From IMG/VR virus record IMGVR_UViG_3300010369_000001: a DNA stretch of 64,000 nucleotides. One strand, written 5' to 3'. Positions 1 to 55,633 of this stretch are shown one piece after another. The notes beneath the pieces were generated by a model, which ran no database searches, was not told the origin of the DNA, and saw only the letters and a program-made list of their open reading frames with translations. Each line of letters opens with the position of its first letter. Positions within the stretch are counted from its first letter, which is position 1. The position numbers and the translations under genes were made by a program. Origin of the DNA: a virus. Taxonomy: Duplodnaviria > Heunggongvirae > Uroviricota > Caudoviricetes.

Positions 1-147
1 CACCTAACTTAATAATAACTTCATTATTATCATTCGTTGGTAATGCCAGTGTATCAAGTAACGTCTTATCTTTTCCAAGCGTCAATGAATGCGTACTACT
101 ACTATTTGTTTCAAATACCCCGTATCTAATTATTTTCATTTTAATTC
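1..147 (-). CDS. partial CDS (N-terminal 49 aa, gene continues beyond window start); paralogue of 149..493
   Basis: Minus-strand translation from ATG at 145-147 gives MKIIRYGVFETNSSSTHSLTLGKDK... This shares the N-terminal motif GVFETNSSSTHSLTL with the adjacent ORF. Confidence 0.4.
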
Positions 148-148
148 C

Positions 149-493
149 TTAACCGTCCCAGCCAAAATATCCAAACGCTACGACACGGGTACCATTCTTA
201 CAAGTATGAACTTCATCAAATGTTTCCATATCAGCTTCATCAAAGAATTGTGTATAGGTTAATAGACGTTCATCCTCGTCATAATCGCAATCATCTTCAC
301 AGTCTTCCTCGTCATCATCACAGAAAGCACATTTGCCTTTCTGTTCTTCTGCCTTGATTAACTCACCTTTCCACTTGCTATAAAGCAGTTCGCCTCTTTT
401 CCACTTCTCAAAATCTTCAAAGTCTACAAGAGTCAAACTATGTGTCGAACTACTATTTGTTTCAAATACTCCCGCTCTAATTATTTTTTTCAT
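149..493 (-). CDS. hypothetical protein with conserved N-terminal motif (GVFETNSSSTHSLTL) and acidic Cys-rich segment (CAFCDDDEEDCEDDCDYDEDE)
   Basis: ORF track; N-terminal motif duplicated in the upstream partial ORF; D/E/C-rich tract. Confidence 0.5.
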   Translation of the reverse strand: MKKIIRAGVFETNSSSTHSLTLVDFEDFEKWKRGELLYSKWKGELIKAEEQKGKCAFCDDDEEDCEDDCDYDEDERLLTYTQFFDEADMETFDEVHTCKNGTRVVAFGYFGWDG

Positions 494-504
494 TTCTTTT
501 TCTT

Positions 505-870
505 TCAGATGTAGTGACCAGGGAACGCAGTTTCTAACTGATGCTCTATTCGCAACTTTCGTAAAATAGCTTCATCAGTGATAGGCTCCTCGTGACCATT
601 ACTTTCCCATACGGTATCCAAGAATTCTACAATCTCACGATTATAGTCAGGTAATCTTTCTTTAAGACGCATTAAGCTACCTAGCTGCTTTGCTTCAAAG
701 TCAGCCCTTCTTTTCTGTAGCTTAATTAATGTATTTACTATTTCTTCTGTCCTAGAATCTACTTTTGTCCGTGTAACCTCAATATGTTCCCCAGCTGCAT
801 TATTAAATACTTTACTTACCCGCACATCCATCTGCGACGGATTCCGGTGATGGCGTTTCATTTCCGACAT
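505..870 (-). CDS. hypothetical protein
   Basis: 121-aa minus-strand ORF in the gene tiling path; no recognisable motif. Confidence 0.4.
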   Translation of the reverse strand: MSEMKRHHRNPSQMDVRVSKVFNNAAGEHIEVTRTKVDSRTEEIVNTLIKLQKRRADFEAKQLGSLMRLKERLPDYNREIVEFLDTVWESNGHEEPITDEAILRKLRIEHQLETAFPGHYI

Positions 871-1300
871 TCCATTTCTCCTGAATAAATTTTTGTAAAT
901 CTTTTACATATGATTCTCGCCACTGCTGTTCAGCAGAGCCATAAGATACGAGGGCACTATGATACTGGTACAGTAACGCACCAGCTACAAACCCTTGGAA
1001 TATTAAGAAAGATATATCAGTAACTGGAATACCAATATCTGCAAACGTCTCAAAGGGTTCCTCAAAGACAGTGCAAGCTAAAATCCTATCACAGTAATCA
1101 GTATAGAACTTAATTGCTGGCTCTAATTTAGCCGGTGTAATATTATGTTCGGCCAGAAATAGATGAAACTCTGCATATTCTGGATTGGTTACAACATCAA
1201 TAGCTGTTTTAACAGCTTGTGGATATAACCCAACGATTGAATGGCTGGGCTGGTAAAAGGGGCTGCCCTCAGCCCCTTGCGGTCGCATAAATAATCCCAT
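812..1300 (-). CDS. hypothetical protein
   Basis: 162-aa ORF; its stop abuts the start of the downstream gene (1300/1301). Confidence 0.45.
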   Translation of the reverse strand: MGLFMRPQGAEGSPFYQPSHSIVGLYPQAVKTAIDVVTNPEYAEFHLFLAEHNITPAKLEPAIKFYTDYCDRILACTVFEEPFETFADIGIPVTDISFLIFQGFVAGALLYQYHSALVSYGSAEQQWRESYVKDLQKFIQEKWNVGNETPSPESVADGCAGK

Positions 1301-1795
1301 TTAAGTTCTTTTCTTTGAAGCTATAGACACTGCATCTTCAACTGACCAGCCTCTATTTATTCTTTTTTGAATAGTACCGTGAGGTACTCCTAATTTCTCA
1401 GCCCAAAACTGTAATGGTTGTTTTTCACCATTTACTTCAAGTATACGATTACTTCTTTTGTTGCGTGAATTAATTAATCGTGTAGTCCATCTACAATTAC
1501 TAGGACAATAATCACCATTATTATCAATTCTATCAATTTCTAAATTATCCGCATACTTATTAGATAAAGACCAATCACGAAAAGCAATAAAAGATTTAGA
1601 CCACTCATCACACACTTTAATTCCACGCCCGCCATAATTTGGATAAGCTTGTGAATTTATATTTTGGCATCGTTTTAAAATATCTGCCCAAATACTATAG
1701 AGTCTACTTCTTTTTCCTCGTTGACTCTCCCCATGTTGTTCCCGAGTGGAAGGCCTACCAAACTCTTCACGAGTAATATCTTTATTGATTTTCAA
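1301..1795 (-). CDS. HNH homing endonuclease (HNH_3-like) with C-terminal HTH; TTG start
   Basis: Motifs YSIWADILKRC...NYGGRGIKVCDEW...DRIDNNGDYCPSNCRWTT...N; paralogue of 2101..2748 and 45803..46456. There is no in-frame ATG, and the first start codon after the upstream stop is TTG at 1793-1795. Confidence 0.65.
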   Translation of the reverse strand: MKINKDITREEFGRPSTREQHGESQRGKRSRLYSIWADILKRCQNINSQAYPNYGGRGIKVCDEWSKSFIAFRDWSLSNKYADNLEIDRIDNNGDYCPSNCRWTTRLINSRNKRSNRILEVNGEKQPLQFWAEKLGVPHGTIQKRINRGWSVEDAVSIASKKRT

Positions 1796-1893
1796 ACGAT
1801 ATTTAAGAGTATCAATAGATAATCCAATTTCTGTGAGGCTTCTACAATACTTTCAAATTCAAAAATTTTTCGTTTATTATGAGTAGCCATTAA

Positions 1894-2094
1894 CTAACGT
1901 GTGGTCTTTTTTGCGTTATCTCTAATAATAGGTATATCCTTTGGACAAGATATACCTATTTTAACGCGTGAACCTTTAATTTCTCTAACGACAACTTCAA
2001 TGTTGTCTCCAATAAAAATCTTTTCATTAACCGCTCGTGTTAAAACTAGGAACGGTTTCTTTTCTCCTTCTTCTTGTCCTTCAAATACTGGCAT
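1894..2094 (-). CDS. csrA: carbon storage regulator CsrA/RsmA homologue with 14-aa N-terminal extension
   Basis: FLVLTRAVNEKIFIGDNIEVVVREIKGSRVKIGISCPKDIPIIRDN aligns residue-by-residue with E. coli CsrA [47 protein letters not shown]; ATG at 2092-2094. Confidence 0.75.
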   Translation of the reverse strand: MPVFEGQEEGEKKPFLVLTRAVNEKIFIGDNIEVVVREIKGSRVKIGISCPKDIPIIRDNAKKTTR

Positions 2095-2100
2095 TTTTGT

Positions 2101-2748
2101 TTAAACTTCTTCTACGTGTGTAAGAGCATGCTCCATTGACCAGCCCTTTTTTAATCTATTGAGCAATACTGCTCTTGTTATTCCATATTCCTCACACCAA
2201 TAGGCAACACAATGAGTTTCATTGTTGTACGTTAATAAACGATTTCCACGTTTATTACGTTGGTTCAACTTATGCGATACCCAACGACAATTATCTGGCA
2301 TATAATCACCATCGTTATTAGGGTACCTGTCTAACTGTAAACCTTTTTTATATCCATTATTCACAGACCATTTTTCAAACTCTTCATAAACTGCCCACTC
2401 ATTACAAATTTTTATTCCTCTTCCACCATAATTTTTATAAGCTACACAATTTGGATTTAAGCATCTTTGCCGCATACTTACCCAAATACTATATAGTTTA
2501 GGACGATTATTGTTACGTAAATGTCCATGTTTAGTATTAGCTTTAGCTCTTGCTTCAACACCAATACATCCACAACCTTGTATTCGTTTATTTTGTAATT
2601 GAGAACCTACAACATAAACAATTGTTTTAGCTACACATGAACATTGACATTTCCAATAAATACTACCACATTTATCTCGTCTAGTAGTTTCTTCAAGAAC
2701 AGTTAAACGTCCAAATGTTTTATCTTTTAAATTTATTTTTGCTGGCAC
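2101..2748 (-). CDS. HNH homing endonuclease (HNH_3-like) with N-terminal Cys-rich zinc-finger region; GTG start coupled to upstream stop
   Basis: CGSIYWKCQCSCV...CGCIG Cys cluster, then LYSIWVSMRQRC...NYGGRGIKICNEW...DRYPNNDGDYMPDNCRWVS and a C-terminal HTH. GTG at 2746-2748 overlaps the TAG of 2748..3590. Confidence 0.65.
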   Translation of the reverse strand: MPAKINLKDKTFGRLTVLEETTRRDKCGSIYWKCQCSCVAKTIVYVVGSQLQNKRIQGCGCIGVEARAKANTKHGHLRNNNRPKLYSIWVSMRQRCLNPNCVAYKNYGGRGIKICNEWAVYEEFEKWSVNNGYKKGLQLDRYPNNDGDYMPDNCRWVSHKLNQRNKRGNRLLTYNNETHCVAYWCEEYGITRAVLLNRLKKGWSMEHALTHVEEV

Positions 2749-3590
2749 TATACTTCCTCAGCATGCGATGCAATAACTGTATCCACTGTATCAGAAAGAG
2801 TGATCCCGATGTCTTTCACAAGAGCTACAAAATCATTAATACTACTTGCCGCTGCGTCCAATGCATCCACACTCATACTTTCCAATGTCTCAATCGACAC
2901 ATCATCCCTCCATTCCGTAATCTTCACACCCAACTTCTCAAACTTCTTAGTCACCGACTCAACCAGGTCATGAAGCTGGACACAAAGACTCTCAATATCG
3001 CCTTCTCCCGCTAACTCGTCAAGAGCGTCGCCATCTTTCTTACCTTTAGGCTGAGCTACAACTTCGTCATCAATATTGTGCGAAACTGTCTTACGCTCAA
3101 CCCCTAGAATAGCATCGACAGCCGCTCCTACCGCGCGAGAATAAAGAAGCTCTCCAGAAAAGATACGGTCGATAATCGATTGGCGGTCGATGGCATGCTC
3201 CTGAGAAGATAGGCGATTTAGCTCTCGAAGGTGCGCTAACGTTATTTTTACATTTTCTTTCCTGGCATCAGCTACTAATTGCACAAGATACTCATATCCC
3301 AAGATTTCACACAGCTTAGCTGCGTGATATAGGCTGCTGGTTGCTACGCCTAAAATTGAGGAAATAACCTCTACAAGATTATTGCTATATTCCTCCTTAT
3401 CCTCTGAACTAGCTAGCTGCTCTCTACGAACAGCTACGTCATTTCCTAGAGAAAGCATGTTCTCCAGCTCGGTAAAGCTATTGAAATTCTTGCCATGCTT
3501 TTCTACCAACGCTTTATCTTCTGCGTCTAAGCCCGCCAATAAGGCATCATATTTTTCAGAAACGGTGACAGATTTTTTAGTTTTTGCCAT
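2748..3590 (-). CDS. hypothetical acidic protein
   Basis: 280-aa ORF starting MAKTKKSV...; no recognisable catalytic motif. Confidence 0.5.
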   Translation of the reverse strand: MAKTKKSVTVSEKYDALLAGLDAEDKALVEKHGKNFNSFTELENMLSLGNDVAVRREQLASSEDKEEYSNNLVEVISSILGVATSSLYHAAKLCEILGYEYLVQLVADARKENVKITLAHLRELNRLSSQEHAIDRQSIIDRIFSGELLYSRAVGAAVDAILGVERKTVSHNIDDEVVAQPKGKKDGDALDELAGEGDIESLCVQLHDLVESVTKKFEKLGVKITEWRDDVSIETLESMSVDALDAAASSINDFVALVKDIGITLSDTVDTVIASHAEEV

Positions 3591-3648
3591 AAATTTTTAC
3601 TGACTAAGGGTTTGAAAGGCCCAAATATAGCAAAAATTTAGCTGATTG

Positions 3649-4035
3649 TCAAGGGGTAGGGCGGAAATTTACTTCCTGAATAAGCTTAATAAATTCGGAA
3701 TTATCTTGAATAAACCTCGTAAATATAGTGGTAAGCGCCTCAATTTCGCGTTCTTTAGGTTGTTTTAACCCGCTGTGATAATAGGCGGCGTGAACAATTT
3801 CGTGCATTAATGTTCCAACATAGGTATCTCGTTCTACCTTATCAGAAACCTCAATTAGTCCTTTGGTGTAAGAAATCGTACCACAAATCTCCCTGTCGCC
3901 CTCATTTTCAAGCCTTTTTTGCTCAACCCGGTAATTTACTGGGCCAACTCTGATGGAATTTATTAGACTCATTCCGTCAGTATACCAGAAAAGTGGACAC
4001 GTCGCCATCGAAGGCGATTCCGAAAATTGCATCAA
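3649..4035 (-). CDS. putative zinc metallopeptidase (HExxH)
   Basis: GTLMHEIVHAAYYH contains HExxH in a small protein; the true start may be an internal Met (MATCPL.. or MSLINS..). Confidence 0.4.
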   Translation of the reverse strand: MMQFSESPSMATCPLFWYTDGMSLINSIRVGPVNYRVEQKRLENEGDREICGTISYTKGLIEVSDKVERDTYVGTLMHEIVHAAYYHSGLKQPKEREIEALTTIFTRFIQDNSEFIKLIQEVNFRPTP

Positions 4036-4359
4036 ATCAAGATACTACGTGTGTATCCGAGAGAAATAAATTCAGCTACCTTCTAGCTCGGCCTAGAAAA
4101 TAACCTACACTAACCATACTTTCTTTCCTATTTCGTGGGGCTAGTACGGTAAAACAGGGCAATCTTAGTGGCGCCGGGTTTTCTCTACCAAGATTATCTC
4201 GATCAACCCGCTCGCTAAGCAGCGAGGGCGAAAGCTCTATTTTTGCCTTCTAAAATGTTTGCAGCTCGATTTTTACGCAGCCAACGAGGCCATCTGCGAC
4301 ACGCACTTTAATCTTCAGCTAATCACGTCGATCCCTTTCGTGCCCAAGATATTATTATA

Positions 4360-4485
4360 TCAAATCCCAAAAAACATGAGAACTACAATCCTTATTGTTC
4401 CCATAACCGCCAAAACCGTCATACTTAAGGCCAGTGTTGCTAAGAGTAAACACAAACTATTAAACACCATAGTACCCATATCCAT
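4360..4485 (-). CDS. possible 41-aa hydrophobic peptide (below the ORF-track length cutoff)
   Basis: My own minus-strand translation: MDMGTMVFNSLCLLLATLALSMTVLAVMGTIRIVVLMFFGI. It lies in the otherwise non-coding 4036..4502 gap. Confidence 0.2.
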   Translation of the reverse strand: MDMGTMVFNSLCLLLATLALSMTVLAVMGTIRIVVLMFFGI

Positions 4486-4502
4486 TTGCCTAAGCCAGTT
4501 CT

Positions 4503-4790
4503 TCATTTATTGTCCTTTTTACTGAATAAAAGCTTCTTAATTTCTTCCTTAGTTCCTTTGCACACATATTTACCGAACGTTGTATATAGCGTACAAGTTG
4601 ACGTATCTTTAACTACTACTTCACGTATGCCTTGAATAGAGCCATAGGGTAAACAAACAGTTTCATTACCAACTAGCTCTATGTCATACCACACATCATT
4701 CCATGTGGCGGACTTATATGTTCCAAAGGGATTACTATTACTGCTAGCACCAAATAATTGTTCAAATATGCTTTGATTTGTCACAGTCAT
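4503..4790 (-). CDS. hypothetical protein
   Basis: 95-aa ORF; its start abuts the stop of the upstream gene at 4790. Confidence 0.45.
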   Translation of the reverse strand: MTVTNQSIFEQLFGASSNSNPFGTYKSATWNDVWYDIELVGNETVCLPYGSIQGIREVVVKDTSTCTLYTTFGKYVCKGTKEEIKKLLFSKKDNK

Positions 4791-5167
4791 TACGTTGTTC
4801 CGCTGGGTGGTACCTGTTCACTAAAAATCTTTCTATATTTATCTGCATCAGGGCCCGCTGTCCAAGGCGCCGCTGATACGCGCTTCACATCTTCCCGGTG
4901 TTTTTCAAGCAATTCACGCAATTTCTTTTGCCCAGCTTCAGTGTCCAAATCTGCCGCCGTAAACTTAGCACTAGAAAGTGGCAATTCAACTCTCCCGGTA
5001 AACATATCTTGCATTGGAACTATAGCGCGATGCCCTTTATAGACAAACTCTAATAATTCATTATCACCATTTGGCGTACTGTCATATGTTGCCCCTAACT
5101 CTATCAGCGCAATAAGATTGTCACTTATATTACTAACGTATTTGAAAAATTTATCCAATTTAGTCAT
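4790..5167 (-). CDS. hypothetical protein
   Basis: 125-aa ORF, start/stop coupled to neighbours. Confidence 0.5.
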   Translation of the reverse strand: MTKLDKFFKYVSNISDNLIALIELGATYDSTPNGDNELLEFVYKGHRAIVPMQDMFTGRVELPLSSAKFTAADLDTEAGQKKLRELLEKHREDVKRVSAAPWTAGPDADKYRKIFSEQVPPSGTT

Positions 5168-7397: not shown

Positions 7398-8219
7398 CTA
7401 CTCTCTCGTTTCTGCATGTAGTTCAGGCTCAGCGCCGTATAAAAGTACTTCTGTACGATTTTTGATTTTTGTAAGAATTGGAAAATCCATAATCTCAGTT
7501 CTGTTCCGCTCAAAGATTAAATCAGGGTTCGTTCGAGCTAAATGTTTTTCTGGTAGCTCATGTAACTCATCTGCTGTGAATTTTTCCAATACTCTAATTG
7601 TACGAATATAAGTACCTCGCTTTTGCTCATTTGAATAATCATTCCAATTAATCCCTTTTTCACTAAATAATTTCTCCTGTAACTGATTACAGCTAAGCTC
7701 CTGAAGAGATTTATGCGAGAAATTAGCTTGCGCAGCTGCTTGAATAGAATTACGGACTGCATCTAGCTCACGCCAGATAAAGTAGTTACCTACCTCTTCT
7801 TCGGGGTAGTTTGCAGCTCGGCAATCAAATATAGGCTCCATAGTCGCATGAACAGCCGGCGCTCCTGGTACAATAGCCATCGCATAATTAAATCGAACTG
7901 AGGCCATTGCAGCCAAAATAGAAACTATTTTAAACAGCTTCCCGTCAAAGAAAATCTGACTGTCATACTTTGGAGAATGAAACAATAATGAAATCTCGTC
8001 TGACTGGGTATAGCCTAGCTTAGCTCCAGTTTGTTTTACAAGATATTTCATAGTGTAAACCATAACTTGGTGAAACCCTTCATCAAAAGGTTTTCTAAAG
8101 TTCCTAGTTAATGTATGAAATGCTCTACCGTCTAATCGAGCTATTACTGGCACCATCGGTATAAGACTTTGCTGCCCTATTTGCTCATATATTTTCATTC
8201 TCTCCGCTAATGCTTCCAT
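7398..8219 (-). CDS. Thg1-like protein (tRNA-His guanylyltransferase / 3'-5' nucleotide polymerase family)
   Basis: VIARLDGRAFH, GYTQSDEISLLF and EKLFSEKGINWNDYSNEQKRGTYI match Thg1 VVRLDGRNFH, YGQSDEYSFVF and EILFSEFNINYNN..RKGTV, including the catalytic Asp and the D-E pair. Confidence 0.75.
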   Translation of the reverse strand: MEALAERMKIYEQIGQQSLIPMVPVIARLDGRAFHTLTRNFRKPFDEGFHQVMVYTMKYLVKQTGAKLGYTQSDEISLLFHSPKYDSQIFFDGKLFKIVSILAAMASVRFNYAMAIVPGAPAVHATMEPIFDCRAANYPEEEVGNYFIWRELDAVRNSIQAAAQANFSHKSLQELSCNQLQEKLFSEKGINWNDYSNEQKRGTYIRTIRVLEKFTADELHELPEKHLARTNPDLIFERNRTEIMDFPILTKIKNRTEVLLYGAEPELHAETRE

Positions 8220-8479
8220 TTTTCCTCCAATTCCTTAATTTGTACATCTAGCTCCTCTAACTGCTCGTCTGTAATCCACGGCTCATGAATTATTACAGCC
8301 CACTCAGTGCGCACTATTCCAGACATCATATATATGAGCCATCCTATTAAAATAAACACCTCATATTGCTGACCTAGCTTTAACCATGGCGATACAATCA
8401 TCATAAACAACAATATCGCTAATGCGCACAAAATAAAATGTGGATAAACTAAATCTCTACGCGGGAATAATGGGCTCAT
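8207..8479 (-). CDS. small membrane protein (two predicted TM helices)
   Basis: FILCALAILLFMMIVSPWL and VFILIGWLIYMMSGIV. Confidence 0.45.
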   Translation of the reverse strand: MSPLFPRRDLVYPHFILCALAILLFMMIVSPWLKLGQQYEVFILIGWLIYMMSGIVRTEWAVIIHEPWITDEQLEELDVQIKELEEKWKH

Positions 8480-9449
8480 CTAAATCAGGTCTAAAAGCTA
8501 CAATCCTGCCGAAACGAGGCTTATCTTTAATTCCGCCGTCCTGAAAGACAATATCAACGTGCCTCCCTAAATATTTCTTACGATTCTTCCACGTAATTTC
8601 AGTGCGAATGTCATAAGCTTCTTTAGCAAAACCTACGCCGCACTTTAATCCCTCTGGAAAACCCTGCTCAGCAATAATCTCCACAAAAACTGTCCCAACC
8701 TCATCAACTAGCTCGCGGTCAGCTTTCTTGTGCCCTCGCTTAGTCCGGCCAAGATTATCCTTAGTTGTATTAGTTTTCTTAGCTTCCTCAGTAAGAATCC
8801 CCTTCTGACCAAAATCTACAATCTTTGCAGAAATAGTAGTCCACTGCTTCATTTTCCAAAAGATGTTCTGTTTCGCTGTCGCGCGAGAATGAATATACGG
8901 CGATTTAGGGCAATGAAGCATAATCCCCTCCATGCCGCCTTTAACATTAAAGTCAAATTCGTTTTGCACAGCTTTCTCATTGTGACAAACAGTGTGATGA
9001 ACTGGAACTAATTTAACTTGATTTGGATCGTTTTTATCGCACCATTCCTGATAATCAACGACTCGTTCTTCAAAAGCTTTCGCCCCTTCTTTGTTTTTCC
9101 ATGTTATATTTTTCTTCCATTCAGCTACAGTCACCATATCAAAGACATACAGCTTCAGGTCTCCTACGTCTTCTTCGTGAGCCATAGCAGCAGTTATTTC
9201 ATGGAACTTCATCCCTTCAGCACATATCTCGCCATCAAGTATTACACCTGAGCTAGTAGCTAGCTCAACAATATCTTTAAACCGTTTAGTAACGACTGGA
9301 TGCAAAGGCTCCATTTTTTTAGATAGAAATTTTCCATCTACTATAAGAAATCGAACCCCATCAAACTTTGTACTCGTTAGGACGGGGTAGTTTATTTTTG
9401 AAAGTACAGGCTTATCATTTGCCGCCTGCATTGGTTTTAACATCGGCAT
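8457..9449 (-). CDS. ATP-dependent DNA ligase (T7-like)
   Basis: Motif I KFDGVR (KxDG), motif III ILDGEI, YVFDMV, EGIMLH and FWKMK correspond to T7 ligase KLDGIR, YDMV, EGLIVK and WWKMK. The track start at 9461 is TTG; the ATG at 9447-9449 is preceded by GGAGA. Confidence 0.75.
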   Translation of the reverse strand: MPMLKPMQAANDKPVLSKINYPVLTSTKFDGVRFLIVDGKFLSKKMEPLHPVVTKRFKDIVELATSSGVILDGEICAEGMKFHEITAAMAHEEDVGDLKLYVFDMVTVAEWKKNITWKNKEGAKAFEERVVDYQEWCDKNDPNQVKLVPVHHTVCHNEKAVQNEFDFNVKGGMEGIMLHCPKSPYIHSRATAKQNIFWKMKQWTTISAKIVDFGQKGILTEEAKKTNTTKDNLGRTKRGHKKADRELVDEVGTVFVEIIAEQGFPEGLKCGVGFAKEAYDIRTEITWKNRKKYLGRHVDIVFQDGGIKDKPRFGRIVAFRPDLDEPIIPA

Positions 9450-9745
9450 ATTGTTCTCCAATCATATGATAACTTATCTTCTTTTGTAAAACGTCCAAAC
9501 GTATATTCAGGGTAATCTGTTGATATAAATTTATTACTGCAGCGCTTCTTTTTTGGGTATTTAACTAAACAAACAAGCTTTAAAGCGCTGGTAAGACCGA
9601 TTAATACTTCTACCCCGCTTTTTCTTATGCGCCCAGAAACAAGTCCGTTATGTACTGCGTTATCATGCGCTGTTCTGAAACCGAAACGAACACCGTTATC
9701 TGGTAATTTAGCTAATGGCGTCGGAATTAAAGGCATCCACTTCAT
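9437..9745 (-). CDS. hypothetical protein
   Basis: 102-aa ORF. Confidence 0.4.
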   Translation of the reverse strand: MKWMPLIPTPLAKLPDNGVRFGFRTAHDNAVHNGLVSGRIRKSGVEVLIGLTSALKLVCLVKYPKKKRCSNKFISTDYPEYTFGRFTKEDKLSYDWRTICRC

Positions 9746-12125: not shown

Positions 12126-12158
12126 TTTGTTAAAATAGGTAAATTAATTCTTAAAAAT

Positions 12159-12264
12159 GTCCACAAGCTCTCGCCGGCCTTTTTGTCCACAAGCTCTCCC
12201 TAGATGTCCACAAGCTCTCGCCTCGCGTCCACAAGCTCTCGCCTCGCGTCCACAAGCTCTCGCC
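12159..12264. repeat. iteron array: five direct repeats of GTCCACAAGCTCTCGCC (one variant) at 21-bp spacing; candidate replication origin
   Basis: Repeat starts are at 12159, 12185, 12206, 12227 and 12248, in the 300-bp intergenic region between the DnaB-like helicase and ORF 11133..12125. Confidence 0.7.
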
Positions 12265-12320
12265 AGCCCTTTTTGTAAGTCCTTACTGTGTAAAGGTTTG
12301 CGAGCAACTCGAAATTTTCA

Positions 12321-12358
12321 TACTATAAGGTTAATACTATAAGGTTAAACTATAAAGT
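12321..12358. repeat. AT-rich 14-bp tandem repeat TACTATAAGGTTAA x2 plus a partial third copy; possible DNA-unwinding element next to the iterons
   Basis: Copies at 12321-12334 and 12335-12348, with a partial copy at 12349-12358. Confidence 0.55.
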
Positions 12359-12425
12359 CAAAACGGTAAATCTAATAGAAATTTTTCGCCGGCGCTTCGC
12401 GCCAGCTCAAATTTCTAACTGAATT

Positions 12426-13982
12426 TTAATTATCAGAACTCCGCATTTCTGAGACATGGGTTCTTTTCCCTTTTGCTGTTGTAGAATCCTTTTCCTTTTT
12501 CTGCCAACTTTTCTGCGGCACCTCAATCACCGCCCCCTTTACCTCAATCATGGTTCCAATGTCCCCGATCAACCTTAACCCCGTTGGAGCTATCTTCTTG
12601 TTTTCTCTGGCCTTGGTACAGGTTATCGTGCTTGTCATGTCTTCCTCCTTCAGCATACTGACATTGAAGCACGCTACATAATGCATAGCTAAGCTCTTAC
12701 TGCCCATTCCATCTGTGTGATCTAGTGTCTGCCCAGCTTTTTTCTTATTTCCCTCACCATTGGCCTGATTAACCACCCACACAGGGCAATCAAACTTATA
12801 GGCGATACTGTCCCTTATTCGCCAAGGAATACTTTGAACCGCCATCCAAAGATTTAGCTTTTTATCGTTAGAAAGCATGTCAAAAGCTAAGTCCGCAGTG
12901 TGGTCAACAACAGCTAAAGCACAATGAGATTTAATTCCCCTTTGCTTATCTGCATCCAAGGCACGCTGAATCATCATCACGATAACATCTATAGGGTCAG
13001 AAGCCGCGCTTCTTATTTCTGGTTTTGTAAGGTCGATAATGCGCAAATTCTTAGCTATTTCCTTCATTGCCATTGCTTCACGCTCAACTTCACCAAAAAC
13101 ACCACTAAAATACGTTTTGCTGATTTCTAAGTCTCTAGCTGTAGGAGCTCTAGACGAAGTTTTAGGAGTTGGATCCTTTCCGCTGATTTTCGCCAGCGGA
13201 ACTTTACCTATATATGACACAAAACGATTAGTAACCTTGTCCATCCCATCTTCTGTCGTTATGTAGAAAACCTTCCCAAGGGAAGCTCTCCCTAAAGAAA
13301 TTCGATACCTGTTCATCTGCAATTCTGCCCATTCAGCTGCCACTTGAACACTACAACACGTTTTTGCGGCACCAGTGGGCCCCAAAAAGCTGTACATCTC
13401 ACGGTTGGCAAATCCCCCAACATATTTATCGATGAAGGAAATTCCAGTAGGCTGAAACTGAGCTAGAGCATTCCTAGCTGCCCTCATGCTCTCTGACATC
13501 GGATTGAAATCATCATCCGTAAACTGGGTTCCAGCTCTGGCTTTGTCCAAAGCGTTGGCATAATTCCTTAACACATCGCCTACTTCTTCTGTCGGAAGCT
13601 CAGGAAGGCCCAAAATCAGCTCCTGGTGAGCAAGTTGCGAAATTAAGGTCCCAGACCAGTAGGAAAGCTCAGCGGCCGTTAGAATCGAGCTATGAGCGTT
13701 TTGGACTAAATTGTACAATTCTATCCATTCTTCTTCATCTAGCTCAGGTGTCCCATTTTGCGCAGCTTGACTCAATCTTTCTTGGATAGACAGCAGAAGA
13801 TTGTGTTTTCCTGGGACGGTTTTCAGTTTCTGTACCGCGTCTGCTACGGTCTCGTAAAGGATGGCCAGGTCACGACGCCCCAGAAAGGCCGATGAAGTGA
13901 TCTGACCTGTAAATATTTGCCAATTCTCCAGTGAGGAGATCGCTGCTTGCAGCAGCATCGTTTTTCTCTCATTTGTTATCAT
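12426..13982 (-). CDS. DnaB-like replicative DNA helicase
   Basis: QPTGISFIDKYVGGFANREMYSFLGPTGAAKT resembles the DnaB helicase-domain entry (TGF..LD....G....L.......GKT) and carries a Walker A. VVDHTADL looks like a Walker B, and VVNQANGEG like helicase motif H3. Confidence 0.65.
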   Translation of the reverse strand: MITNERKTMLLQAAISSLENWQIFTGQITSSAFLGRRDLAILYETVADAVQKLKTVPGKHNLLLSIQERLSQAAQNGTPELDEEEWIELYNLVQNAHSSILTAAELSYWSGTLISQLAHQELILGLPELPTEEVGDVLRNYANALDKARAGTQFTDDDFNPMSESMRAARNALAQFQPTGISFIDKYVGGFANREMYSFLGPTGAAKTCCSVQVAAEWAELQMNRYRISLGRASLGKVFYITTEDGMDKVTNRFVSYIGKVPLAKISGKDPTPKTSSRAPTARDLEISKTYFSGVFGEVEREAMAMKEIAKNLRIIDLTKPEIRSAASDPIDVIVMMIQRALDADKQRGIKSHCALAVVDHTADLAFDMLSNDKKLNLWMAVQSIPWRIRDSIAYKFDCPVWVVNQANGEGNKKKAGQTLDHTDGMGSKSLAMHYVACFNVSMLKEEDMTSTITCTKARENKKIAPTGLRLIGDIGTMIEVKGAVIEVPQKSWQKKEKDSTTAKGKRTHVSEMRSSDN

Positions 13983-33417: not shown

Positions 33418-34155
33418 ATGATTGGTTTTATTTATAAACATACTTCTCCCTCAGGTAAAAGTTATATCGGCCAAACTACTTTAGTACCTAAAATACGCTG
33501 GAAGAAAGGCAGTAACTATAAAGGCTGCACTGCTTTTTATAGCGCAATTAAAAAGTATGGTTGGGAAAATTTTATAAGTGAAATTTTAGAAGAAATCGAA
33601 TTTGATGATATTGCTGTTTTAAATAAACTTGAAGAAAAATATGTAATTCAATTTAATACATTAGCTCCGTATGGTTATAATTTAAAAGCTGTTGGCGAAA
33701 ACACCTTAACAGCTGAAATAACTAAAGTACGAAAAACTAAACATTATGTTTTACATAAAGAAAAACAAGTTTCAGTTGCATCATTAGCTAAAGAGTACGG
33801 AATAAACCCACAAACATTATTTAATCGTGTGTTTAAATTTAATTGGGCATTAGAGAGGGCCTTAACTGAGCCAGCTACCGGACGTAAAGGTAAAAAGCAC
33901 ACAGATGAAAGTAAGAAGAAACAAAGTGACGCAAAGAAAGGAAAGAAAATGTCTAAAGAGTTTAAAGAAAAACAACGTACTATACACATCAAACACATTA
34001 TTGAATATAAGGGAAAACGACAACCAATAGTTGATTTTGCAAAACAATACGGAATTACACCGTCTACCCTTAGAGATCGTATTTTAAAATTTAATTGGCC
34101 AGTTGCAAAAGCAATAGAAACACCAATACGAAAGAAAATAAACTCTAAACTTTGA
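33418..34155 (+). CDS. GIY-YIG homing endonuclease with tandem C-terminal DNA-binding repeats
   Basis: The N-terminus IGFIYKHTSPSGKSYIGQT carries the GIY...YIG motif. Two C-terminal repeats follow: AKEYGINPQTLFNRVFKFNWALERAL and AKQYGITPSTLRDRILKFNWPVAKAI. It lies on the plus strand between purC and sbcC and overlaps the sbcC stop. Confidence 0.8.
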   Translation: MIGFIYKHTSPSGKSYIGQTTLVPKIRWKKGSNYKGCTAFYSAIKKYGWENFISEILEEIEFDDIAVLNKLEEKYVIQFNTLAPYGYNLKAVGENTLTAEITKVRKTKHYVLHKEKQVSVASLAKEYGINPQTLFNRVFKFNWALERALTEPATGRKGKKHTDESKKKQSDAKKGKKMSKEFKEKQRTIHIKHIIEYKGKRQPIVDFAKQYGITPSTLRDRILKFNWPVAKAIETPIRKKINSKL

Positions 34156-44742: not shown

Positions 44743-45813
44743 TTAAATTTTTGAAAAATCCAATTCAACGTTTTGTTCGTTTGCAGATTGAAAAAGCAAT
44801 TGTTTGAAAAGATCTCGAGATATGCCGCCAGGGTCAGTATTAGAGGGCAGGTAAAAAGGCATCACTTTTGTATACTGTCGACGTATTTTGTCCGCAGTTA
44901 CTTCAATGTGGTGCTTACTCTGTCTATCAGCTAGGGCTTTATCTGGATCTAATGCTATTACTATTAAAATATTATTACGCGAAACATGCGATATAAGTCT
45001 ATCGAGATTATACGGGCTGATGGATTTACCCATTAAGCCAATAGCTGGTGGTCCGATATTTATGCAATCAAAAGCGCCTTCAACAAGAATAACTGTTTTA
45101 TATTGTTTGGCGCTATCGTAATTGAATAAATATCTTTCAGTTTTCGAGCCGGGCATATTGTAGTATTTAGGTATTTTTTGCCCTTGCTCATTAACAAACT
45201 CCCTTTTATATGGAAGTCTAGCCATCCAGCTAATCTCTTTCTTATTTTCAATTACTGGGATAATTATTCGCGAGCGTGCTGTGCTGAGGTCGGAATAGTC
45301 ACACCACTTCACACCATAAGAGTGACTTAGGATGTTTATATCAAAATTTCTTTCATTACGGAGATATTGAATTGCAATATGGCCAGGATTTAGCTTATGT
45401 AGCGGTACACAAAATCCTGGAGCGACATATTCGCCAGCTACTCTAGTTGTACCTTGCTTCAAAAAAGCCTTAAGAACAGGTCGTCCAAATAGGACTTCAA
45501 AGAAAAGAATAGACTTTCGTTCAGGCACGTGTGCAAAACAGCTTTCATTATAGCAATTCACTAGATTCAAATTAGTGTGGCCAGTCAATGTGTCTGTAAC
45601 ACCCCATTCATAAGAGATATAAAGGCGCTGTCTTGTATCATTACAGTAGGGACAATTAACGCGAAAATTTTGTCCGCGTGAAATCAATTCACGTTCCTTT
45701 ATACGGCCGTTATAGGTTATACGCCATTCATTTTTAATGCCTTCATTTGCAATTTGAACATGACCGTTAAATTTACGTTTAAGAGCCGCACATAATTGTG
45801 GATTAAGATCCAT
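44743..45813 (-). CDS. DNA primase (zinc-ribbon + TOPRIM; DnaG/T7 gp4-like)
   Basis: Zinc ribbon NCPYCND...CYNESC; TOPRIM VILVEGAFDCINIG (Glu) and IVIALDPD (DxD). Confidence 0.8.
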   Translation of the reverse strand: MDLNPQLCAALKRKFNGHVQIANEGIKNEWRITYNGRIKERELISRGQNFRVNCPYCNDTRQRLYISYEWGVTDTLTGHTNLNLVNCYNESCFAHVPERKSILFFEVLFGRPVLKAFLKQGTTRVAGEYVAPGFCVPLHKLNPGHIAIQYLRNERNFDINILSHSYGVKWCDYSDLSTARSRIIIPVIENKKEISWMARLPYKREFVNEQGQKIPKYYNMPGSKTERYLFNYDSAKQYKTVILVEGAFDCINIGPPAIGLMGKSISPYNLDRLISHVSRNNILIVIALDPDKALADRQSKHHIEVTADKIRRQYTKVMPFYLPSNTDPGGISRDLFKQLLFQSANEQNVELDFSKI

Positions 45814-46456
45814 TAAAACCTCCTCTCTTATTAGATGGAGTTGTTAAGGCTTTTTCCGCATCCCAGCCTAATGTTAATCGCTTATGTGCACATTTATAAT
45901 TAATATTAAAATGTTCGCACCACTCAACTAATGTTTTTGTAGCATTATTAATCGTTAGGTTTACAGAATTTCGTCGATTTCTACAATTTTGTTTTTTTGT
46001 AACCCATCTACAATTATTAGGACTATACCCCGCATCATTATTAATACGATCTATTTCTAATACTATGCTATATCCGTTAATTTGTGCCCACTGCTGAAAA
46101 TTTTCAAAAGAATTACACCAGTCTTCACATATTGTAATGCCTCGACCGCCATAATGACAATAACCGAGATTATTTGGATTAAGACAACGTTCCTTTATAT
46201 CCGCCCAGATACCGTATAATCTCGTACGAGACACGCCATGTGTTTTATTTATCGTTTTTCGTGTTTCCTTATAAATACAGCCACAGCTATTTGTGTCACC
46301 AGATAGCAAATATTGCGATTTTACAATCGTTTCAGCGTTATTACACGAACAAACGCAACGCCAAAGAGCATTATTATGTGCATCTGTACCCGCAAACTCA
46401 ATTACAGTAAGCCGGCCAAATTTTTGACCAATTAAATTTTTAATTCGTTTGTTCAT
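45803..46456 (-). CDS. HNH homing endonuclease (HNH_3-like), third paralogue
   Basis: LYGIWADIKERC...HYGGRGITICEDW...DRINNDAGYSPNNCRWVT...N plus an N-terminal Cys cluster; overlaps the primase start by 11 nt. Confidence 0.7.
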   Translation of the reverse strand: MNKRIKNLIGQKFGRLTVIEFAGTDAHNNALWRCVCSCNNAETIVKSQYLLSGDTNSCGCIYKETRKTINKTHGVSRTRLYGIWADIKERCLNPNNLGYCHYGGRGITICEDWCNSFENFQQWAQINGYSIVLEIDRINNDAGYSPNNCRWVTKKQNCRNRRNSVNLTINNATKTLVEWCEHFNINYKCAHKRLTLGWDAEKALTTPSNKRGGFNGS

Positions 46457-54205: not shown

Positions 54206-55633
54206 TTAGTACGCGTTAGCTCTTACTTCATCAAAAGTATATTCTTTCATAATTTTTCCATCACGAAAGACTTCAACCATAGCTGGCTTCCACGTACGGG
54301 TTTGATCGTCATCTTTACCGCGACCCATAAAACTAGTTTCATTAACAGTATAAAACCCGCCGGTATCAGATTTAAACGTGGTAACAAGACCTCGTTTAGA
54401 CTGTTTACCGTGATCCGTAATTGGATCTTTGAACACTTCTTGCCAGCGGCCATCTCGCTCAATGGCGCTGCACTTAAAGGCCATTTTCTGGGTGTCTCTG
54501 TTAAGCTGTTGAAGTAACGCTCCGCCAGAACCGAAAGCGATGTTTTCAGCTGAATAGCCGCGCTGTTGCATTGCATACAAGATAGCATCTATACTTTCAA
54601 TATTAACGCCGTCGCCTTGAATAACGCGGATTTTGTTATTTAGCAGCTTGTAACCTTTATCGCTGATCGTTCCGCCAAACTCGCCCCAAAGAATATCCAT
54701 TACATTCTCATTACCCGTAACCAGTACTTGAATTGGATCACCAGAGTCAGGGCGGATGACCAACGTTCCATCTCGTTCAAGAATCATATCTCGTAATGGA
54801 TAACGACCCCACATTCGACAAGCTTCAAAAATATTGAAAGAATCAGATACACAGGCTACGATACCAGTCGGATAGGCTTCTAGCATATTCTTATAAGCTA
54901 ATATCTCGTCCTCGCGACCCCAGCTTGTTATTGTAGAATGCTCGCTAGCTGGAATACTAAAACCTGCCATATCTGCACCATAGTAATAGCTAGCATATTC
55001 TATAGCTGCCATTGTGTCAGTTCCCTTGAAATTAATCAAGTGAGCCATTCCGCCAAGGCCAGCACTCTCGCAAGAGCTAACTCCTCGAAAACCGAAATCA
55101 TGAAGCTTAAAATCAATACTATCAGCATTACCTTGTGTCTTCATTAGATACTTAGTAATGAGATGTTTCATTTCACGAGACTGTGTCGCAACAGTGCACG
55201 GATACCAAAGCTGCATTAACAATGTTTCAAGATAATTAGTTAACCAGTAACATTTCGGATCCGTATTACAAATAACTACCAACGGATGCCCAGTTGGGAC
55301 AGGAGTTCCTTCTGGAATTGCCCAAATAGAAACGGGTAACCTGCCATCATGTTTATCGTAAATATACTCCCAGCCTTCTTTATTAAACAATCCTGGGCCG
55401 AGATGCTGTTCCATGCGTTGTGCAGCATAGTCAATATTGCCTTTCGTGAAAAGCGGATTATACGGATGATGCAAATACTCTTTTAAAATATATTGCAATC
55501 CAAAGAAAACTGTGTCAGACCATTTGCCGCCGCGTGATTCAAGATAGGAATAAATAGTCTGCGTATTTGGCGGATATTGTCGCCAATGTGATACTTTATA
55601 TGAGTCAGTTAGTAACAGCAGGTTCGGTCTCAT
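54206..55633 (-). CDS. nadV: nicotinamide phosphoribosyltransferase (NadV/NAMPT)
   Basis: LHDFGFRGVSSCESAGLGGMAHLINFKGTDTM; length is consistent with NAMPT. Confidence 0.85.
   Translation of the reverse strand: MRPNLLLLTDSYKVSHWRQYPPNTQTIYSYLESRGGKWSDTVFFGLQYILKEYLHHPYNPLFTKGNIDYAAQRMEQHLGPGLFNKEGWEYIYDKHDGRLPVSIWAIPEGTPVPTGHPLVVICNTDPKCYWLTNYLETLLMQLWYPCTVATQSREMKHLITKYLMKTQGNADSIDFKLHDFGFRGVSSCESAGLGGMAHLINFKGTDTMAAIEYASYYYGADMAGFSIPASEHSTITSWGREDEILAYKNMLEAYPTGIVACVSDSFNIFEACRMWGRYPLRDMILERDGTLVIRPDSGDPIQVLVTGNENVMDILWGEFGGTISDKGYKLLNNKIRVIQGDGVNIESIDAILYAMQQRGYSAENIAFGSGGALLQQLNRDTQKMAFKCSAIERDGRWQEVFKDPITDHGKQSKRGLVTTFKSDTGGFYTVNETSFMGRGKDDDQTRTWKPAMVEVFRDGKIMKEYTFDEVRANAY

Follow-up and report, generated by a model that had tools for sequence, protein, structure and literature searches.

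A predicted CsrA-family protein in a conserved three-gene block of uncultured jumbo phages, with HNH-like genes at both junctions

Homologues of bacterial CsrA are carried by ~1.2% of phage genomes (PMC7366521). Campa et al. described such homologues as "highly similar" to bacterial CsrA, and phage RsmA homologues have been proposed to be anti-CRISPR proteins or manipulators of host physiology and CRISPR-Cas (PMC8450108). Retuning of the host and repression of messenger RNAs (mRNAs) by phage CsrA homologues have already been put forward as well (PMC8450108, PMC11879866). In the literature searched, the only functional test is a knock-down of the phage homologue PTXU04_00028, which resulted in smaller plaques (PMC11879866). 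Here we describe a CsrA-like gene (positions 1894..2094, minus strand) in IMG/VR virus record IMGVR_UViG_3300010369_000001, of which we analyzed a stretch of 64,000 nucleotides, called the window below. Like the reported phage homologues, its product is small, phage-borne, and of the CsrA family; unlike them, the gene is found in a conserved trio of an uncultured jumbo-phage lineage, and the subfamily to which it belongs differs from the homologues of Campa et al. (PMC8450108) in being extended at the N-terminus and apparently devoid of the C-terminal helix. We consider it probable that the protein is a divergent, phage-lineage resident of this block and a GGA-binding regulator, and that the block has been invaded at both junctions by HNH-like genes.

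The open reading frame (ORF) 1894..2094 starts at an ATG and encodes 66 amino acids (aa). Judged from its sequence, the product is a member of the CsrA family, though not a typical bacterial CsrA. The Pfam CsrA profile PF02599 matched it with 62.3 bits (gathering cutoff, 27; E = 4e-17), residues 16 to 63 spanning positions 2 to 49 of the 53 profile positions, and PHROG 9500, annotated as "CsrA-like regulator," matched with E = 2e-13. In a phmmer search against PDB sequences, residues 16 to 60 aligned without a gap to residues 2 to 46 of the Escherichia coli, Yersinia, and Pseudomonas CsrA/RsmA/RsmE proteins (E = 5e-9 to 7e-8). The five-strand core is thereby gapless with respect to bacterial proteins such as E. 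coli CsrA (1Y00) and Pseudomonas fluorescens RsmE (2JPP), with 40% identity to the E. coli protein over the 47-aa core, and residues L2, L4, R6, G15, P37, and R44 are conserved. In phage numbering, L16, L18, R20, and R58 correspond to E. coli L2, L4, R6, and R44, while A21 takes the place of R7. L4 and R44 have been singled out as critical for RNA binding by CsrA (PMC7652899). A preliminary description of the locus had identified the ORF as a CsrA/RsmA homologue along its core, with an Arg at the R44 position, an Ala at the R7 position, and a 14-aa N-terminal extension, and had suggested a search with CsrA-family hidden Markov models. All of these assignments were borne out by the alignments, and the search gave the Pfam match far above its cutoff.

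Several features set the phage protein apart from bacterial CsrA. The 14-aa extension, MPVFEGQEEGEKKP, precedes the canonical Met1 position, which is itself occupied by a Phe, and no alternative ATG, GTG, or TTG start exists at that position, where the codons are TTC CTA GTT TTA. The extension is compatible with the CsrA fold, because solved CsrA chains bear N-terminal tags of 8 to 17 residues (PDB chain coordinates). At the other end, the protein terminates in RDNAKKTTR where the usual CsrA has a helix, leaving 8 residues (DNAKKTTR) after the R44 equivalent. Helix H1 is, as far as the primary structure tells, absent or vestigial in the phage subfamily. A final difference is that the phage protein has conserved protein-coding partner genes and not the known Csr small RNA (sRNA) or FliW partners.

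These partner genes flank the csrA-like gene on the same (minus) strand. The upstream partner (2748..3590), the first gene of the trio, encodes a 280-aa protein that is predicted to be all-helical, and the downstream partner (812..1300) encodes 162 aa; in relatives the start of the latter gene overlaps the csrA stop codon. In three contigs, L008, L010, and L011, a CsrA-like gene lies directly between genes encoding 282 to 327 aa and 152 to 178 aa, and BLASTP identified these flanking genes as homologues of the 280-aa protein (33 to 46% identity, E = 1e-56 to 1e-82) and of the 162-aa protein (33 to 41% identity, E = 1e-22 to 1e-38). A metagenome scan with an alignment of the 280-aa family added L013 (a 65.7-kb contig), L014, and L015, all with the identical arrangement. 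L014 is the same phage as L011, which leaves five distinct relatives (L008, L010, L011/L014, L013, and L015). Over these five, the 280-aa homologues share 33 to 46% identity (E = 1e-51 to 1e-82) and the 162-aa homologues 31 to 41% identity (E = 1e-17 to 1e-38) with the window proteins (BLASTP or tblastn), and the genes of the trio either overlap or are separated by 2 to 118 nt. No HNH gene is present within the trio in any of the five distinct relatives. Other shared genes, namely, those for a DnaB-like helicase (52% identity), an RNA ligase (40 to 48% identity), and a radical SAM protein together with a metallophosphoesterase, are reordered in the relatives, and the relatives' contigs lack homologues of the window genes that directly follow the trio. 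By this comparison of gene order, the trio is kept intact in the jumbo-phage lineage while the surrounding genes rearrange. Because the five relatives possess the trio without HNH genes, the CsrA-like gene would be a long-standing resident of the trio and the HNH genes later insertions.

A word-indexed protein search did not detect the 280-aa homologues, at 33 to 46% identity, in the same collections in which they were found through the contexts of CsrA hits and the metagenome scan. An "orphan" verdict from a word-indexed search should accordingly be checked by gene context or pattern scans.

The distinctive architecture of the CsrA-like protein recurs beyond the window. A full HMMER scan of 1.84 billion representatives returned 8,614 CsrA-family hits. 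Several of the nearest single-domain hits have a charged N-terminal extension of 10 to 25 aa, with F, Y, C, or S replacing Met1, and their C-terminus is RD(N/D)AK with a short basic tail, as opposed to the usual REEIY and helix. Within the lineage that carries the trio, every member has a charged extension of 10 to 25 aa and F, Y, or S at the Met1 position; positions 45 to 48 are DNAK or DDAK instead of EEIY, and the tail consists of 8 to 13 mostly basic residues, in some cases with Pro. The positions at which all five lineage members agree with E. coli CsrA are L2, L4, R6, G15, I32, P37, and R44. An intact ORF that combines the extension, an aromatic or small residue in place of Met1, and the RDNAK tail is kept in six divergent phages, at 44 to 57% identity. 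All RD(N/D)AK-type homologues with a readable context are located in phage-like contigs. Examples are L006, a siphovirus-like contig in which the csrA-like gene adjoins a divergently transcribed HTH_3 gene; L009, with a T4-like portal; L012, with a sigma factor, a methylase, and helicases; and L016, with early small ORFs and a thymidylate synthase. A narrow test, with two peptide patterns on 185,579 species-representative genomes, revealed no CsrA of the RDNAK type. Among cultured phages, 52 records match the CsrA-like protein by tblastn, all below 60% identity, and many of the matches are annotated as CsrA-like. The protein thus appears to belong to a divergent subfamily which, among the sequences examined, is found only in phage-like contigs. 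As a separate observation from the HMMER scan, most top-scoring CsrA hits are proteins of 100 to 300 aa with two to four tandem CsrA domains per chain, for example, P0009 (159 aa), P0011 (141 aa), and P0016 (121 aa), within P0009 to P0043 and others. Such tandem-domain proteins would be "single-chain dimers" of CsrA.

Free-standing HNH and GIY-YIG genes of T4-like and SPO1-like phages, along with I-HmuI (1U3E), are the closest described counterparts of the two genes that separate the csrA-like gene from its partners in the window. HNH1 (2101..2748, minus strand) encodes 215 aa from a GTG start, with a Cys-rich N-terminal region and an I-HmuI-like part; its start overlaps the stop codon of the 280-aa gene, and its own stop lies 6 nt ahead of the csrA ATG. 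HNH2 (1301..1795, minus strand) encodes 164 aa from a TTG start, with no nucleotide between its stop and the ATG (at 1300) of the 162-aa gene. Both match the PHROG "HNH endonuclease" families 374 and 3377 (E = 1e-45 to 1e-57; E = 1e-54 for HNH2 with 3377), and they are 43% identical to each other over 146 aa (E = 2e-46), so that the csrA-like gene does lie between two paralogous HNH genes, as first described. A third paralogue, HNH3 (45803..46456, minus strand; 217 aa), adjoins the DNA primase gene; it matches PHROG 374 with E = 3e-67 and was found by tblastn at 43 to 44% identity. The three paralogues show that this family has spread within the window genome. It is also present in 751 phage records from unrelated hosts, including Staphylococcus, Vibrio, Bacillus, and Enterococcus, with 42% identity in the best match. 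Together with the absence of HNH genes from both junctions in the five relatives, this distribution marks the HNH-like genes themselves as mobile.

The catalytic competence of these proteins is less evident. HNH1 and HNH2 reach no Pfam or NCBIfam model, and a PADLOC homing endonuclease profile matches HNH2 with E = 0.0016. Residues 131 to 172 of HNH1 align to the HNH motif of I-HmuI (E = 0.0027), the sole solved relative detected by sequence. As in I-HmuI, the metal-binding Asp and both Asn residues of the motif are kept; unlike I-HmuI, where D74 is followed by the general base H75, HNH1, HNH2, and HNH3 all have Asp-Arg. The same His-to-Arg replacement occurs in the annotated HNH endonuclease of Enterococcus phage EFDG1. 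From the family loci considered, HNH1 to HNH3 and L018 1312..2274, Asp-Arg in place of Asp-His appears to characterize the HNH-like family as a whole. The likeness to the homing genes of T4-like and SPO1-like phages extends to the C-terminal and, in HNH2, N-terminal helix-turn-helix (HTH)-like modules, the intergenic insertion, the presence or absence among relatives, and the several paralogues per genome. "HNH homing endonuclease" is a fair family label for HNH1 to HNH3, with nuclease and homing activities putative, and the "HNH endonuclease" annotation of the PHROG 374/3377 family may conceal a noncanonical or inactive catalytic site.

Traces of insertion are visible at both junctions. The end of HNH1, VEEV-stop (GAAGAAGTTTAA), repeats the conserved (A/S)EV-stop end of the 280-aa family (in the window, GAGGAAGTATAG), which fits an insertion of HNH1 at the last codons of the 280-aa gene, on a basis of 12 nt. 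On the other side of csrA, a small ORF of 32 codons (1792..1890, minus strand) starts 3 nt past the csrA stop. Three-frame translation indicated that a shift by one frame at about 1818 to 1833 fuses it to HNH2, giving MATHNKRKIFEFESIVEASQKL joined across the shift to GLSIDTLKYRLK. The HNH2 protein repaired in this way has weak HTH matches straddling the shift (HTH_30, E = 2.8e-4; NUMOD1, 0.07; I-TevI DNA-binding domain, 0.07). What appears as a 98-nt gap separating csrA from HNH2 is thus accounted for by the small ORF and the frameshift and is not intergenic. An assembly error is not the cause of the shift, because the sequence of the HNH2 region is the same in five independent assemblies. HNH2 looks like a decaying endonuclease gene whose N-terminal HTH DNA-binding module was lost to a 1-nt frameshift; a programmed frameshift is less likely than decay.

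The expression context of the trio was analyzed in the first 5,000 nt of the window. A consensus scan of positions 1..5000 gave its best sigma-70-like promoter match at 3624..3652 (minus strand; TTGACA-17 nt-(TG)TATATT, 11/12, a consensus match only), ~30 nt upstream of the 280-aa gene. No convincing minus-strand terminator was found between 3590 and 812. This arrangement suggests that the trio may be transcribed early by the host RNA polymerase as one unit. The second-best match in the same scan, at 4382..4354, lies just upstream of a phage transfer-messenger RNA (tmRNA) gene (3991..4345, minus strand), which Rfam RF00023 detected at full length (69.7 bits, E = 5e-25; tag, ANILEGKNRAFALAA) and ARAGORN missed. 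The tmRNA gene is located one gene upstream of the trio in the window and immediately upstream of it in L010 (2758..3103; 98.7 bits) and L011/L014 (6750..7107 in L011 and 1121..1478 in L014; 51.1 bits). The tags of the relatives' tmRNAs likewise end in FALAA. No tmRNA was found in L008 and L013 at the Rfam gathering threshold. The occurrence of tmRNAs in huge phages is mentioned in PMC7162821.

Given its family and its conserved residues, the protein most likely acts as a CsrA-type dimer binding GGA sites. In the mechanism that we propose, the block would be transcribed early as one unit from the host-type promoter, and the CsrA-like protein would form the usual strand-swapped dimer. Its conserved beta1 and beta5 residues (the L2, L4, R6, and R44 equivalents) would bind GGA-containing single-stranded sites in mRNA leaders, and, during infection, messages of the host, the phage, or both would change in translation or stability as a result. 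Should phage mRNAs be the targets, the mode of action would resemble that of RegA, with which phage T4 represses the translation of early mRNAs; RegA, too, is a small RNA-binding protein, which blocks ribosome binding sites, although its fold and family are unrelated to the CsrA-like protein. Control of the CsrA-like activity by protein partners would be more likely than control by a decoy RNA, given the translational coupling of csrA to both conserved partner genes and given that a GGA density scan and Rfam detected in the 64-kb window neither a GGA-dense, CsrB/RsmY/RsmZ-like sponge RNA nor a Csr/Rsm sRNA family member.

Described protein control of CsrA offers a parallel for such partners. 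As in the FliW-CsrA and CesT-CsrA pairs, the relatives' csrA-like gene is tightly, and often overlappingly, linked to a gene for a protein of ~150 aa, and a protein antagonist of CsrA acts at a near-equimolar ratio (PMC7652899). Unlike the CsrA of the FliW-CsrA pair, the phage CsrA is devoid of the C-terminal extension bound by FliW, and the analogy serves as a lead only. The 162-aa protein has no sequence similarity to the FliW or CesT families in Pfam or PDB, and profile searches of the partner proteins in Pfam, PHROG, PADLOC, and PDB were empty. A single-sequence AlphaFold2 model of the 162-aa protein was all-helical and unusable (predicted local distance difference test score, 43.5), and it was not used. 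A more elaborate version of partner control would make the trio a self-contained phage post-transcriptional switch. There, an N-extended, helix-less CsrA-type RNA binder would be set by one or both of its coupled partners: the ~155-aa protein, a FliW/CesT-like antagonist with a different fold, and the 280-aa protein, a KorB-like binder of DNA or nucleic acid. The switch would act early, beside the tmRNA, on targets that are not Shine-Dalgarno (SD) sequences. We regard this version as rather doubtful; if true, it would be a partner system of CsrA that is new and confined to phages.

A number of observations weigh against the reading of the protein as a resident, GGA-binding regulator. The NCBIfam CsrA equivalog models TIGR00202 and NF002469 score 54.7 and 55.4 bits, under their cutoffs of 70.1 and 73. 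The R7 position is Ala, Ser, or Thr across the whole lineage, and after the R44 equivalent only DNAK and four further residues follow, as opposed to EEIY at the start of helix H1 in E. coli. The N-terminal part of that helix contributes to the RNA site (PMC7366521). Neither the csrA 5' regions of the five phages nor the sequence preceding the trio contains a conserved hairpin with GGA in its loop, and the phage tmRNAs show no GGA enrichment. Occlusion of a GGA-containing SD sequence may moreover not be a general mode here: an SD-like 4-mer occurs at positions −22 to −4 of 22 out of 84 predicted starts, a lower bound given that starts were assigned by the longest-ORF rule and some may be wrong. 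Positions −12 to −1 before the 84 starts are about 50% A. Both figures suggest that translation initiation in this phage proceeds mostly without SD pairing, a possible clue to its host. Finally, the composition of csrA is endonuclease-like, with a GC content at third codon positions (GC3) of 0.224, the fourth lowest of the 84 genes, while in the relatives the csrA GC3 is just slightly under that of the neighboring genes, except in L013. The window 47-aa core is 51 to 57% identical to its syntenic counterparts and up to 66% identical to nonsyntenic phage CsrAs, although with 66 codons and 47 aligned positions the differences in GC3 and core identity are not significant, 47 positions being too few to resolve an allele replacement.

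The last points bear on the proposal of the preliminary description that HNH-csrA-HNH is a mobile cassette, with the CsrA gene as cargo moved by homing endonucleases. HNH1, csrA, and HNH2 have a GC content of 0.33 to 0.35 and GC3 values of 0.171, 0.224, and 0.182, whereas GC3 averages 0.35 over the window; HNH1, HNH2, the GIY-YIG gene, csrA, and HNH3 are the five genes with the lowest GC3 among the 84. The three genes are also packed without spacers between two conserved genes, and other phage CsrAs are at least as near to the window CsrA core as its syntenic counterparts are. Synteny contradicts the cassette, in that all five distinct relatives (with both L011 and L014 counted for one) have a CsrA-like gene at exactly this position without HNH genes. 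The closest CsrA homologues outside the lineage, in L006, L009, L012, and L016, have no HNH neighbors either, HNH3 occurs without a csrA gene, and the window CsrA has retained the lineage-typical N-terminal extension. The claim that csrA rides on a mobile cassette does not survive this comparison, and we judge the cassette to be very improbable. The csrA allele could still have been co-converted from another phage during endonuclease homing, with which the low csrA GC3 would fit; that would be hitch-hiking of a resident, not transport of a cargo. The GIY-YIG-type homing endonuclease gene (33418..34155, plus strand; PHROG 314, E = 3e-31) is, as an observation in its own right, one of only two sizeable plus-strand genes in the window, with a GC3 of 0.195, the third lowest of 84, and the C-terminal HTH of its product resembles that of the HNH-like family.

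Two further explanations accept the gene as it stands and assign it another role or none. As a decoy or antagonist, the protein would soak up host CsrA-sequestering sRNAs or protein antagonists, or would pair with host CsrA in inactive heterodimers, and the activity of host CsrA would shift as a result. In favor of such a role, the phage proteins keep the residues of the dimer core but differ at the equivalents of R7 and E46/I47, and with the C-terminal helix missing, FliW-type control via the C-terminal extension (PMC7652899) could not act; a correlation between phage-borne and host CsrA has also been reported (PMC8450108). The lineage-wide invariance of L2, L4, R6, and R44 is nevertheless unnecessary for a pure protein decoy, though needed for an sRNA decoy, and we consider a decoy role unlikely. 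That the ORF is a functionless, decaying remnant between selfish genes might be read from the Met1-to-Phe change, the short C-terminus, the NCBIfam scores below cutoff, and the apparent frameshift in the neighboring HNH2 gene. This is essentially refuted by conservation, with an intact ORF, the same architecture, and invariant RNA-binding residues in six divergent phages and with translational coupling to both neighbors preserved in the relatives; the chance that the gene is a remnant is minimal. A resident regulator that binds GGA sites is the reading that we favor.

The window is part of an uncultured jumbo phage genome. Its genes, nearly all on the minus strand, include those for rIIA, DNA polymerase, an SbcC-like protein, a DnaB-like helicase, the large terminase, and NAMPT; 84 genes were predicted. 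Several public metagenome assemblies contain the identical window sequence, the longest of the contigs reaching 225 kb. Megablast of 8 kb of the window gave no match to cultured phages, the large terminase is merely 21 to 26% identical to those of cultured phages, and IMG/VR scans with the CsrA protein, the 280-aa protein, and the 280-aa alignment as queries yielded no relatives. No tRNA genes were found in the 64-kb window. Genes for a Thg1-like tRNA-His guanylyltransferase, a DNA ligase, NAMPT, an RNA ligase, and a radical SAM/SPASM protein with a metallophosphoesterase are also carried (window 7398..8219, 8457..9461, and 54206..55633; L001 15005..19784), and RNA-repair and RNA-control genes are conspicuously concentrated in this phage, alongside the tmRNA and CsrA. 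Five tandem copies of a repeat of approximately GAGAGCTTGTGGAC occupy positions ~12160..12270 (minus strand) within the intergenic region 12126..12425, just downstream of the DnaB-like helicase gene (12426..13982), and are preceded by a GC-rich hairpin and a T-run. From its sequence the array looks like iterons, that is, a putative origin or regulator-binding array. A tubulin-family protein is encoded by relatives of this phage, and L008 additionally encodes products with FliG_N/FliG_M and FliM Pfam matches among otherwise unannotated ORFs (regions concerned, L008 10867..14240 and L013 9125..10285). A phage-like contig with a CsrA homologue would not be expected to carry flagellar switch-like genes as well.

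While phage CsrA homologues were already known, what is new here is a phage-associated CsrA variant with a recognizable signature, an N-terminal extension and a helix-less RDNAK tail, in a conserved trio. That the trio has been retained through extensive rearrangement speaks for a function intrinsic to the phage and points to two proteins as candidate interaction partners. The locus also illustrates, in textbook form, the invasion of a tightly coupled operon at both of its junctions by homing-endonuclease-like genes, and it cautions that "a gene between two HNH genes" should not be read as "cargo."

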